From: Scenedesmus sp. PABB004
Taxonomy: Eukaryota
Assembly: GCA_014905635.1 (NCBI GenBank)
Contig: CM026547.1
Span: forward strand, 2,418,001-2,482,000
Length of the DNA stretch: 64,000 bases
Direction: 5' to 3'
Numbering within the stretch: the first letter of the stretch is position 1; each line of letters starts with the position of its first letter. Shown piece by piece: positions 40,335 to 64,000 of this stretch. The position numbers and the translations under genes were made by a program. The notes beneath the pieces are model-generated. The model saw only the letters and a list, made by a program, of their open reading frames with translations. It did not search any database and was not told the origin of the DNA.

Positions 40335-43300
40335 ATGCGTGCCGCAGGCCACGCGCCGCGGCGGGGCCGCGCCGAGTTGCTCTGTGTCGCCGCCGCACAA
40401 CGGCCGCCGCCGCGCAGCCCGCCGCCGCGCCAGGGCCCTGGCGCGGGCCCGGGCGGCGGCCCAGCCCTGCGGCTGCCCCTGGCGCTGGAGCGGCTGGCCG
40501 AGCTGTGGCGGCGCGTGTCTCCCACTGACGCATGCGCTGAGCCGCGCGGCAGCAGCAGCCTGGGCCGGCGCGTCCGCGTCCTCGTCAACCGCTTCGCCCT
40601 GCGCCTGGGCCCCCAGTTCACCGGCGCGCACGTCTACGCCGTCAGCGTCACGCCGCGCGGCGGCGAGCCCCAGCCGGCGGCGCCCGAGCTGCGCGCGCGC
40701 GCGGTCGCGGCGGTCGCGCGCGAGCGCGGCTGGCCGGACGGCAGCTGGCAGTTTGACGCCCCCGCCGGCCGACTGTTCAGCCTCGCGCCGCTGGCGCCGC
40801 CAGACGGCGGCGCGGACGTCGCGCTGCCCGCGGCCGGCGGCGCGCCGGAGGCCGTGCTGCGCGTCACGCTGGCGCCCGACCCCGCCGCCCGCCTGCCCGC
40901 CGCGCCCAGCGGCGGGCCGGGCGACGCGGCGCCGCTGCAGGCGCTCGGCCTGCTCCTGCGCGCCAGCCTGTGCGCGGCGCTGCCGCAGGCGATCCCGGCC
41001 GCGCGCGTGATGCTGCTGCCGCCCGGCAGCGCGCCGCGGCCGGCGGCGCCGCCGGCGTCAACCAGCCGCGGCGGCCACGGCGGCCGGGGCGGCGGCAGCA
41101 GGGGCGGGAGGGGGGGCCGCGGCCCGCCGGGGGGCGGCCGCGGCGGCGCCCCGGGCGACGCGCTGGGCCCGCTGCAGCTGTGGACGGCGCTCGCGGCGGG
41201 CGCCAAGCCGACGGAGATGGGGTGGACGCTGCAGCTCGACACCAGCCGCGGCGCCGTGCTCCCGGCCGGCGAGCTGGCGGAGCTGCTCGTGGGCGGCGCT
41301 GGCGGCGCGGCCTCGCCCGCGGAGCTGTGCGGCAGCCGGGCGAAGCTGGCGGCCGCGGAGAGCCTGGTCAAGGGTGCCAAGGTGCGTGCGCGCGCGGGCG
41401 GGGGCCGGGGGGGGGGGGGCACGACCGGCGGCGCCGCGCGTGTTGACCGCGCCGCCGCCACTGCCGTCCCCGCCGCCACGCGCCCGCACGCCAGGTGCAG
41501 GTGCGCTACCCCACCGGGGCGCAGTCGCGCGTGGTGCGCGGCCTCGACGCCCGCCCGCCCGCGCGCTACACCTTCAAGCCGCCCGACGGCTCCACCACGA
41601 CCGTGGCGGCGCACTGGGCCGCGGCGCACGGCGTGACGCTCGCGCACGGGCACGACTGGCCGTGCGTCATGGTCAGCGCGCGGGCGGCGATCCCGCTGGA
41701 GCTCTGCGCCGTCGCCGCGCCGCAGCCGCGCCGCGCGCTGAACGAGCGGCAGACCGCGGAGCTCATCAAGACGGCGGCTCTGCCGCCAGAGGTGCGACTG
41801 CGGGCGATCCGCGCCATCGTGGCGGGCCAGCTCTCGGGTTTCCGCCTGCGCCTGCTGCAGGCCTGGGGCGTGTCCATCAGCCCAGAGCCGCTCGAGGTGC
41901 GCGAGCGCGGGCGGGGGAGCCGCTGCCCGTGCGGCCGCGCGGCGCGCGGCTGACGCCGGCGCCGCCGCCTCTGCTGCCGCCAACGCGCGGGCCAGGTGCC
42001 CGGTCGCGTCCTGCCGGACGCGCTGCTCGAGTGCGGCGGCGGCACGTGCGCGGAGCCGAGCAACCAGGGGGCGTGGCGGCCGCCGGCGCGCGCGGTCACG
42101 CCGGCGCGTCTGCAGCGCTGGGTGGTGATCAACCTCGGGGGCGCGGCGCTGCGGCCCGGCGTCGACGTGCTGCTCGCGCAGCTGGTCGCGCAGCTGCGCG
42201 CGGCCGGCGGCTCCGTGGCGCCGCCGGAGCACGTTGCCGGCGGCGGCGGCGGCAGGGCCGGCGGCGCGCGCAGCGCGCTCGAGGCGGCCGCCGCGGCGGC
42301 GGGCGGGCGGCCGCAGCTGGTGCTGGTGGTGCTGCCGGAGCGGAGCTCGGCGCAGTACGGCGAGCTCAAGGGCGCCGCCGCGGCGCTGGGGCTCGTCACC
42401 CAGGTCGTCGTCGCGCCGCGCGTCGGCCTCGCGCCGGGGCGCGTCGAGCTGCGGCCCGCCGTCGCCGCCAACCTCGCGCTCAAGGTCACCGCCAAGGCGG
42501 GCGGCGCGAGCTGGCAGCTGCCGGGCGGCCCGCGCGCGTGGGCGGGCGGGCTGTGCGAGGCGCCGCTCCAGGTGCTGGGCATCGACGTCGGCCACGCCGG
42601 CGCCGGCGGCGGGCCCCGCCGGCGGCCGTCGGTCGCGGCGGTGGTCGGCTCGCTGGACGCGGGCGCGAGCCGCTACGCCGCGGCGGTCAGCGAGCAGAGC
42701 GGGGGCGAGGAGCTCGTGCTCGGCCTGGCCGACATGGCCGCGCAGGTCATGGCCGCGCACGCGGCCGCCAATGGCGGCGCGCCGCCCCGCTCTCTGCTGG
42801 TCTTCCGCGACGGCGTCAGCGAGAGCCGGTACGCCGCGGTCATCCGCGAGGAGGTGGCCGCTCTGCGCGCCGCGGCCGCGGCGGTCGCGCCGCGCGGCGC
42901 CGCGCCGCCCAAGGTGCGCCGCGGCGCGCTGCCCGGCGGCGGCCGCGACGCGGTCGGCGCGCGCGTGAGTTTCCACGCGCCCGCGCCCGCCGCCCCGACA
43001 CGGCCGCCCGCCCCGCCGCCGCCGCCGCCGCCAGCTGACGTTTGTGGTGGTCTCCAGGTCGCACGGCCTGCGCCTGCTGCCGCACCCCGACGACCCGAGC
43101 GCGTGCGGGCCCGACCGCGGCGGCAACGTGCCGCCGGGCACGGTCGTGGACCGCGGCGTGACGGCGCCGCTCGCGGCCGAGTTCTACCTCAACTGCCACG
43201 CCGGCATCCAGGGCACCAACCGCCCTGCCCGGTTCAACGTGCTCGTCGACGAGATCGGCCTCTCGCAAGACGGCCTCCAGCTCCTCTGCTTCCACCTCGC

Positions 43301-43502
43301 CAGCACGCACGCCGCGTGCGCCCGCACGATCGCGGTGCCCGCCGCGGTGCGCTACGCCGACAAGGCCGCCACGCTCGGCGCGTTCACCGGCGGCGTCGGC
43401 GCGTGGCGCGAGGTGCAGGCGCCCGCGCCGGGCGTGCCGGCGCGTGCGTGGCGCCCGCTGCAGGTCAGTGCCGACCTGGCAGGCGCGGCCTGGTTTTTGT
43501 GA
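40335..43502 (+). CDS. AGO: Divergent eukaryotic Argonaute (N-L1-PAZ-L2-MID-PIWI), about 944 aa
   Basis: Exons 40335-41381, 41495-41896, 41996-42913, 43035-43502. Motifs GRRVRVLVNRF, IPLELC, YGELK..VTQ, NLALKVTAKAGG, LGIDVGH, PSVAAVVGSLD, VFRDGVSE, GNVPPGTVVD, HAGIQGTNRP, VPAAVRYADKAA. A possible extra 5' exon starts at ATG 40211. Confidence 0.95.
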
Positions 43503-62341: not shown

Positions 62342-64000
62342 ATGAAAGCCCTACAGCAGCATGCGCCTTGCCGCGCCCGGCGCGCCGCGCCTGGCGCCGG
62401 CCGGCGCGCGCTGAGCGTGCGGGCGGCCGCAGCGGTGCGTGGGCGCCGTCTGGGGCAGCGCCGTGCGCCGCGCCAGCCCACGCCGGCCCCGCACCGCAGG
62501 CGCCTGCTGCCGCGCCCGCCAAGGCCGGCCCCGGCGCCGAGACGTGCCGCGTGGCGGTGCTGGGCGCGTCGGGCTACACGGGCGCCGAGGTGGTCCGCCT
62601 CAGCGCGCTGCACCCGCACCTCACGATCACGGCGCTCACCGGCGACCGCCAGGCCGGCAAGGTGCGGCGCGCCGCGCCTGCCCGCGCCGCCGCTGCGCCG
62701 ACCGCGCTGACCGCCCTCCCGCCGCCCTCCCGCCGCCGGCGCGGCGGGGCTCTCGGGCAGGCGTTCTCGGAGGTCTTCCCGCACCTCGTCGCCGCGGCGG
62801 ACGTGCCGCGGCTGGCCAAGATCGACGACGTCGACTTCAGCGCCGTGGACGCGGTGTTCTGCTGCCTCCCGCACGCGACGACGCAGAAGATCATCAGCGC
62901 CCTGCCGGAGCACCTCAAGATCGTCGACCTCTCCGCCGACTTCCGCCTCGCAAACGTCGACACCTACGCAGAGTGGTGCGGCGCGCCGGCACGCGGCAGG
63001 CGCCGCGGCGTGCCCCGCCATCCAAAGAACGACCCCGAAGGTCGGGCTCGTTCTGGTGCACCGCGGTGTGCCTCGTCATCCAAAAGAAGGACCCGGGCCG
63101 TCCTTTTGGATGACGGGGCGCGCCGCGGCGCACCAGAACGAGCCCGACGCCGGGGTCGTCCTTTTGGATGGCGGGGCGCGCCGCGGCGGGCGGCGGCGCA
63201 GCAGGCGGCAGAGCGGCGCGGCGGCGGCGACCGCGGCCCACAGCGCGGCGCCGCGCCGGCTCGCAGGTACGGCGGCGAGCACAGCGCGCCGGAGCTTCAG
63301 AAGACCGCAGTGTACGGCCTGACCGAGGTGTACCGCGACGCGATCGCGCCCGCGCGCCTCGTGGCCAACCCGGGGTGCTACCCCACGACGGTGCAGCTGC
63401 CGCTGCACCCGCTGCTGCGCGCGGGGCTCATCTCGCCCGACGACATCATCATCGACGCTAAGTCGGGTGCGGCGGCGGCGTGACGCACAGCCGAGCCGCG
63501 CGCGCGCACGCCCCCCGCGCGGCAGGGCCAGCGGCGGCACCGGCGGCGGCGGCAGCGGCCCGCGCGCGCGCCGACCCACGCCGCGCGCCGACCCTGCCGC
63601 CGCGTGTGGGTCAGGCGTGAGCGGCGCGGGGCGCAGCGCGAAGGAGTCCAACCTGTACGCCGAGATCGCGGAGGGCATCAACGCGTACGGCGTGACCAAG
63701 CACCGCCACATGCCCGAGATTGAGCAGGGCCTCAGCGACGCCGCGGGCAAGCCCGTGACCGTGAGCTTCACGCCCCACCTCATGCCCATGAGCAGGTGCG
63801 CCCCGCCGGCCGCGGGGGTGTGGGGGGTGTGGGGGCTGCGGGGGCGTGGCTGGGGACCGCGGCGCGGCGCGGCCGACCCCGCCCCGCTCCGCCCGCCGTG
63901 CCCCGCGCTCCGCCCGCACGCGCCGCGGCGGCCAGGGGCATGCAGTCGACCATGTACGTCAAGCTCGCGGGCGGCGCGAGCGTGGAGGACCTGCGCGCCA
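62342..64000 (+). CDS. argC: Plastid N-acetyl-gamma-glutamyl-phosphate reductase, 3' end outside the window
   Basis: Transit peptide, [78 protein letters not shown]. Confidence 0.97.
63001..63188 (+). ncRNA. Long intronic fold-back, candidate miRNA precursor (alternatively a MITE-like inverted repeat)
   Basis: 63001-63086 is a near-perfect reverse complement of 63103-63188, inside argC intron 62976-63266. Confidence 0.6.

Follow-up and report, generated by a model that had tools for sequence, protein, structure and literature searches.

Introduction

In Chlamydomonas, 5152 small-RNA (sRNA) loci have given only 18 high-confidence and 24 medium-confidence microRNAs (miRNAs). Nine of the 18 high-confidence miRNAs are intronic, splicing being neither needed nor blocked, and some fold-backs are found without clear sRNA (PMC4817775). 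Algal miRNAs have been described as unconserved, often released by imprecise cuts from long hairpins, and probably mostly neutral (PMC5511227). Volvox AGO3 prefers a 5' U (PMC5093975). Furthermore, template switching is able to produce perfect stems, and the miRNAs resulting from it lie mostly in sense introns (PMC10710096). These sources, like the others cited here by PMC number, are drawn on in part.

The hairpin described here lies in an intron of the argC gene of Scenedesmus sp. PABB004, within a 64,000-nt stretch of contig CM026547.1 (the window, to which all plain coordinates refer). An initial annotation, made from the letters alone, had proposed it as a novel tandem miRNA precursor. 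It resembles the intron-derived, DCL3-dependent precursors of Chlamydomonas reinhardtii (e.g. cre-miR1157; PMC4817775), as far as these are described in the part of the source drawn on, in being a long sense-strand fold-back in the intron of an unrelated coding gene, and in being single-copy, with a candidate 21-nt 5'-U product and a genome holding three Argonaute loci and Dicer-like genes. Unlike them, it belongs to a Scenedesmaceae-like lineage and is known from sequence alone, and its arms are tandem duplicates, by which one stem would give two products with the same seed. With the medium-confidence miRNA and hairpin-siRNA loci of Chlamydomonas, which give more than one sRNA per arm (PMC4817775, PMC5511227), it shares a fairly long, near-perfect stem, the possibility of several sRNAs per arm and the lack of conservation, but its predicted products are near-identical duplicates and not unrelated neighbours.

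Two further kinds of structure are close to it. De novo miRNA hairpins formed by template switching have been shown in primates with the help of ancestral sequences (PMC10710096), whereas such an origin of the argC hairpin is a proposal. MITE and Foldback elements, and Jordan of Volvox (PMC5093975), have in common with it the long inverted arms, the subrepeats, an insertion-like lengthening of the intron and a possible flanking direct repeat, but the argC hairpin has no family of copies and what looks like its target-site duplication is a palindrome that belongs to the repeat unit and is common. Tandem-duplicated arms of miRNA precursors were not found described in the open-licence literature, judged by titles and the starts of abstracts. 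None are described in the part of PMC4817775 drawn on, whose tables may list such precursors, nor in the corresponding parts of PMC7676726, PMC12290286 and PMC12553114. In the same open-licence literature, no miRNA study in Scenedesmaceae was found.

Host gene and hairpin structure

The assignment of the host gene to argC, already made in the initial annotation, is borne out by three exons matching TIGR01850 at successive profile positions (41-110, 113-178 and 180-237), and the hairpin lies on the sense strand inside an intron of this intact-looking gene (Table 1). The stem is preceded by 25 nt of the intron and followed by 78 nt; a mirtron is excluded, as the hairpin ends do not meet the splice sites. 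Without its 188 nt the intron would measure 103 nt, with 88% G+C, and the neighbouring introns measure 99, 148 and 140 nt. The hairpin itself has 72% G+C, compared with 88% in the rest of the same intron and 87-89% in the three neighbouring introns, in agreement with the AT-richness first noticed.

Table 1. Features of the argC hairpin and its surroundings (positions in the window)
Feature	Position	Strand	Basis
argC exon upstream of the hairpin intron	62761..62975	+	TIGR01850 profile 41-110, E 7.8e-13
GT-AG intron, 291 nt	62976..63266	+	splice-site inspection
Hairpin, unbranched, 84 bp, single copy	63001..63188	+	folding, copy-number searches
5' arm, outer repeat unit	63001..63035	+	unit alignment; 3 changes by parsimony
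5' arm spacer, perfect complement of 63131-63148	63041..63058	+	repeat search, fold
5' arm, inner repeat unit	63059..63094	+	unit alignment; 6 changes by parsimony
Terminal loop of the minimum-energy fold, 7 nt	near 63093..63099	+	folding
3' arm, inner repeat unit	63095..63130	+	repeat search, unit alignment
Candidate 21-nt 5'-U small RNA, inner (predicted)	63104..63124	+	0 unpaired bases; 5' end UUUU
3' arm spacer, 19 nt	63131..63149	+	sequence, repeat search
3' arm, outer repeat unit	63153..63188	+	unit alignment; 2 of 36 columns differ from the inner unit
Candidate 21-nt 5'-U small RNA, outer (predicted)	63162..63182	+	1 unpaired base; seed as in the inner candidate
Palindromic 10-mer CGCCGCGGCG	63179..63188, also 63001-63010 and 63121-63130	.	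resembles a target-site duplication, yet part of the unit
argC exon downstream of the hairpin intron	63267..63466	+	TIGR01850 profile 113-178, E 2.4e-22; GT at 63467

On the plus strand the segment folds into a single unbranched hairpin of -181.2 kcal/mol (z -20.1), as stable as none of 200 shuffled sequences, with 84 pairs and 20 unpaired bases. The hairpin persists when the exon-intron-exon stretch 62940-63300 (361 nt) is folded whole. Thus, the nearly complete pairing of the arms around a short loop, claimed from inspection of the letters, holds. The minus strand, whose folding had been proposed together with that of the plus strand, gives a similarly strong hairpin (-177.4 kcal/mol, z -21.3), the gap being 3.8 of about 180 kcal/mol. 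It had further been argued that T-for-C differences in the left arm mark the argC sense strand, since they would form wobbles only there. All four (63011, 63067, 63069 and 63073) do form U:G pairs on the plus strand, but the A-for-G differences of the same arm (63028, 63060, 63087 and 63091), which are A:C mismatches on the plus strand, form G:U pairs on the minus strand, and the fold holds five G:U pairs on either strand. G:U wobbles are therefore ruled out as a strand marker, and the folding of both strands gives no strand preference.

The stem begins close to the 5' splice site and folds in its context, as would a structure adjusting in cis the splicing of argC or the amount of its mRNA, for instance through Dicer cleavage of the pre-mRNA. 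In Chlamydomonas, DCL3 cuts mRNAs with exonic hairpins and one intronic case affected the host mRNA, but most mRNAs with intronic miRNAs are unaffected in dcl3 mutants (PMC4817775, as far as drawn on). A function of this kind, which leaves both the better-kept arm and the arm doubling described below unexplained, is considered most improbable.

Two metagenome contigs from one study are identical to the window over 62842-63142 and 62854-63098. Because both match without a difference, an assembly error is unlikely for the 5' arm, the loop and the inner 3' unit, with the contigs maybe not independent of the source of the assembly; among the contig pieces listed, none spans the whole hairpin or covers the outer 3' unit. 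An empty-site allele, in which the intron would be joined without the hairpin, was not present among the matches listed for three sequencing runs.

Repeat anatomy and copy number

In each arm a unit of 36-39 nt occurs twice at a distance of 58 nt, with a 19-nt spacer in between. In the direct repeat (63092-63130 versus 63150-63188) 39 nt are 92% identical at a spacing of 58, and the motif singled out in the initial annotation starts at 63100 and 63158. The arm duplication with a period of 58 nt claimed there is thus right as to the spacing, but not as to its extent: the unit is of 39 nt and the 19-nt spacer occurs once per arm, so that the arms are not two full 58-nt copies. When the four units are aligned, column 19 holds A in both inner and G in both outer units; therefore either the tandem duplication preceded the fold-back or the change was compensated.

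Pattern searches of the genome covered the whole hairpin, its ends, the spacer and the unit. Non-self matches amounted to 3 of 5, 3 of 7 and 10 of 13, against 3, 10 and 9 in the respective controls. A further pattern search gave 6 non-self matches of 8 against none in the control, and on inspection all six are without a hairpin or extended likeness, as are the three non-self matches of the first search (3 of 5). Four of the six are one motif repeated in histone gene clusters, between divergent genes. Both matches in a DNA search of the own genome, which skips very common words, are the hairpin itself. By these searches, in which the many dispersed copies looked for did not appear, the hairpin is single-copy.

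The histone clusters deserve a separate remark. They form four near-identical gene blocks (L006-L009, G000:C24:1.56-1.71 Mb; 89-99% over 2.3-2.8 kb), whose genes we take to be H2A/H2B, and their promoter motif agrees with the hairpin unit in 18 of 20 bases, a likeness judged to be due to chance.

An origin of the hairpin as a lone MITE or Foldback/Mutator-like relic, possibly nested, inserted at CGCCGCGGCG with a 10-11-bp target-site duplication and perhaps still giving rise to small RNAs, has to be weighed against this result. Removal of the 188 nt would restore a typical 103-nt intron, a 10-11-nt direct repeat is found at both hairpin ends and around the inner unit, and terminal inverted repeats are present, though here the repeat takes up the entire element. 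Foldback elements, moreover, are characterised by long inverted arms that contain tandem subrepeats. The terminal inverted repeats of Jordan in Volvox give rise to miRNAs (PMC5093975). Against such an origin, the genome searches revealed a second copy neither of the entire hairpin nor of its ends, its spacer or its unit. The 10-mer at its flanks belongs to the unit and is frequent in its own right, with 451 copies in an 800-kb genome sample (0.56 per kb). The non-self matches at control level, together with the position of the palindrome inside the unit, do not support a MITE family. CpG is not depleted in the genome sample (observed/expected 1.19), which weakens decay of methyl-C as a genome-wide force, and the other hairpins sampled have no sequence in common with the argC hairpin. 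A transposon relic is accordingly regarded as improbable.

As for the source of the arm sequence, none was found in the window and the next 10 kb (best matches 21.7 and 22.7 bits, within background). An inverted duplication derived from a target gene, as in the young MIR genes of plants, was rejected, as no founder likeness appeared in the genome, in the window plus 10 kb or in the best pattern matches.

Asymmetry of the arms

The two arms have not changed to the same extent. The units of the 3' arm differ at 2 of 36 columns and those of the 5' arm at 6 of 36, and parsimony places nine changes on the 5' arm (seven if two shared ones are counted once) and one, near the loop, on the 3' arm. The binomial p of 0.021 or 0.070 for this asymmetry is post hoc and refers to 8-10 events. 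Through the two shared changes both duplexes carry the same imperfections, namely an A:C mismatch two bases before the UUUU run that forms the candidate 5' end and a U:G pair at position 17 of the candidate RNA; the chance of such common imperfections is roughly 0.03, a value that ignores CpG hot spots. Taken together, the asymmetry is what would be expected if the 3' arm held a conserved guide whose star strand drifts, although it could also be mimicked by error-prone copying of one arm or by conversion between the direct repeats.

A lesser but serious possibility is that the structure is inert: a fold-back formed by tandem duplication and template switching, tolerated in the intron, giving no small RNA or traces of it and undergoing slow C-to-T and G-to-A decay. 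Inverted repeats, or inverted and direct repeats together, are known to arise in one step by template switching (PMC10710096), and all nine transition differences between the arms have A or T on one of the two sides, which is the direction that decay usually takes. By eye, four of the seven 5'-arm transitions lie at CpG. Neutral decay would be expected to touch both arms equally, whereas 7-9 changes are found on one and a single change on the other. Two further observations speak against it: the search of the window and the next 10 kb revealed no source of the arm sequence, and the stem is 16 points lower in G+C than the surrounding intron.

Candidate small RNAs and their targets

Within the 3' arm two 21-nt 5'-U RNAs are predicted (Table 1), differing from each other only at position 10, outside the seed. 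Each has at most four mismatches to the other arm over 20-22 nt, the limit given for miRNAs in the part of PMC5511227 drawn on. The register of these RNAs is a choice, given that 5'-U 21-mers occur on both arms (of the 25 listed, 12 belong to the 3' arm and 13 to the 5' arm). The 58-nt unit spacing is not a multiple of 21.

The search for targets gave results within chance. A 15-nt perfect complement of the outer 3' unit (26.8 bits) lies at the end of a Sof1-domain exon (L027:1501-1515, G000:C13:1279095) and spans positions 1-13 of the candidate RNA, and a 22-nt complementary site with two mismatches (32.0 bits) lies in an exon (L032) that has no Pfam match and is presumably amine-oxidase-like. 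Both remain within the fitted chance expectation, which is 3.4 matches at 30 bits for the 3' arm and 1.7-9.4 matches at 33-30 bits for the 5' arm, so that no target above chance was found in this search. A 13-mer pattern search gave two non-self matches of four, against one in the control. Seed words compared with permutations are unconvincing (6 versus a median of 1, rank 0.976; 3 versus 2; 13 versus 5). No conserved copy was found elsewhere: three metagenome and two viral exact matches are unrelated sequence, none of them in a hairpin. In Rfam only three sub-threshold matches to generic hairpins were obtained, the best with 36.1 bits against a gathering threshold of 92, by which a known Rfam miRNA family is excluded.

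That neither a target nor a conserved copy was found in these searches is in line with an inert fold-back, and most young algal miRNA-like loci have been argued to be neutral (PMC5511227). The novelty claimed in the initial annotation holds in a weak sense only, green-algal miRNAs being unconserved even among close relatives according to the same source.

Small-RNA machinery of the host

The proteins needed to process such a hairpin appear to be encoded in this genome. Piwi matches were obtained at two places on C16 and at a third inside the window. Dicer_dimer matches adjoin RNase III matches at two places, on C7 (near 943-946 kb) and C24 (near 512-516 kb). One of the C16 Argonaute exons shares 93% identity with a Tetradesmus obliquus protein and 76% with Chlamydomonas Cre04.g214250; the host is thus a chlorophyte close to Scenedesmaceae and no Chlamydomonas.

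The Argonaute gene of the window, at approximately 40.2-43.5 kb and about 20 kb upstream of the hairpin, is divergent and Ala/Gly-rich, with Piwi matches at 42317-42889 and 43026-43382 (+). It has GIDV, RDGV and YAD motifs, which we take to represent the catalytic tetrad ending in Asp, and is far less typical than the two C16 copies.

Similar hairpins in the genome

Similar hairpins were sought in the window and in 80 pieces of 10 kb, which together make up 800 kb or 2% of the genome. Most of the pieces were regularly spaced; the six that had been chosen for their nearness to the window or to genes of interest held no strong hairpin. The scan gave 55 distinct hairpin candidates, 11 of them with z -8.6 or lower: the argC hairpin, one simple repeat of 95% G+C, which was set aside, and nine complex hairpins at four loci (L086, L036, L050 and L108), unrelated in sequence to the argC hairpin. 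Extrapolated to the whole genome, this corresponds to about 200 such loci (95% range 54-512).

The hairpins of L086 and L036, like that of argC, lie in lengthened introns between Pfam-matched exons (kinase and DEAD-box, respectively). The former (L086:3812-4028, G000:C35:503812-504028) is found in a protein kinase gene, has a length of 217 nt and is 91% perfect, with an outer stem that resembles scattered simple repeats and a single-copy core; the latter (L036:700-818, G000:C1:200700-200818), of 119 nt, is located in an intron of about 500 nt of a DEAD-box helicase gene. L108:3975-6667 (G000:C13:1903975-1906667) is a cluster of five hairpins and the best miRNA-cluster candidate of the sample. 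One hairpin of this cluster repeats an upstream stretch, and a paralogous pair within it has kept the lower stem, with the loop region diverged. The L108:3975-4051 hairpin is part of a 117-nt stretch that repeats nearby DNA in inverted orientation; this genome, then, makes such stems locally, which speaks for the inert origin considered above.

Internal repetition of the arms was found to be less common. Among 16 hairpins tested, three beat all 60 shuffles in both arms: the argC hairpin and two at L050 (3100-3197 and 3226-3411). The latter (G000:C24:503100-503411) are adjacent, single-copy and apparently intergenic, about 9 kb from a Dicer-like locus, and consist of 20-nt units at a spacing of 25 and units of about 22 nt at a spacing of 45-46, respectively. 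On one strand, L050:3100-3197 has two 20-nt U-starting units with one seed on the 3' arm. Doubled arms thus recur, but at only one of four unselected loci, and scaling of one such locus in 800 kb gives about 50 loci genome-wide (95% range 1-279). On a bolder reading, the argC hairpin would belong with the two hairpins at G000:C24:503100-503411, to which it is unrelated in sequence, to a recurring class of single-copy miRNA precursors with both arms tandemly duplicated, in which one stem would give two same-seed miRNAs; the existence of this class is a speculative proposal and rather unlikely as yet.

A further hairpin of the same region (L050:9770-9980, G000:C24:509770-509980), of 211 nt, lies by eye apparently in an open frame just after a RING-finger-like stretch; the C24 Dicer-like locus has its RNase III match some 2.4 kb away.

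Proposed origin and processing

On balance, the argC hairpin seems somewhat more probably than otherwise a young, lineage-specific intronic precursor of miRNAs or hairpin-siRNAs of the Chlamydomonas kind. The pre-miRNA proposed in the initial annotation consequently stays the leading and plausible reading, on the grounds of the single copy, the better-kept 3' arm, the Dicer-like and Argonaute genes and the recurrence of similar hairpins, but its strand argument is unsupported. A nearly perfect stem of 84 bp often gives rise to heterogeneous siRNAs. That the products are discrete miRNAs is a tentative proposal, and that they form part of a looser hairpin-siRNA pool a slightly more tentative one.

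The events leading to such a precursor may have been as follows. A 39-nt stretch would have been duplicated at a spacing of 58 and then acquired one A/G difference. The resulting 94-nt tandem would have served as the template for its own inverted copy, probably through a replication template switch that ended at the palindrome CGCCGCGGCG, and this fold-back would have created the 84-bp stem in one step. Transcribed within the argC pre-mRNA, the folded stem would leave an intron with a normal effective length of 103 nt, so that argC splicing would be unharmed. A Dicer-like enzyme would then cut the stem and the 3'-arm strand, with its weak UUUU 5' end, would be loaded into Argonaute, so that at most two 21-nt RNAs sharing their seed would result (63104-63124 and 63162-63182). 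Their regulatory effect is probably small, if any.

Biological significance

One more unconserved intronic hairpin in a green alga is of little importance by itself, since the turnover of such miRNAs is rapid and growth is almost normal in Chlamydomonas mutants that lack them (PMC4817775, PMC5511227, in the parts drawn on). The argC hairpin is rather of value as a pointer: this genome seems to hold some 200 such hairpin loci, and the intronic-miRNA system of the Chlamydomonas type may extend to this lineage. Doubled arms, if they represent a true class, would let a single stem supply a miRNA at a higher dose or in diversified form. Finally, if paired same-seed miRNAs do arise from it, the doubled-arm stem would lend itself directly to the construction of artificial miRNAs with two guides in these algae.
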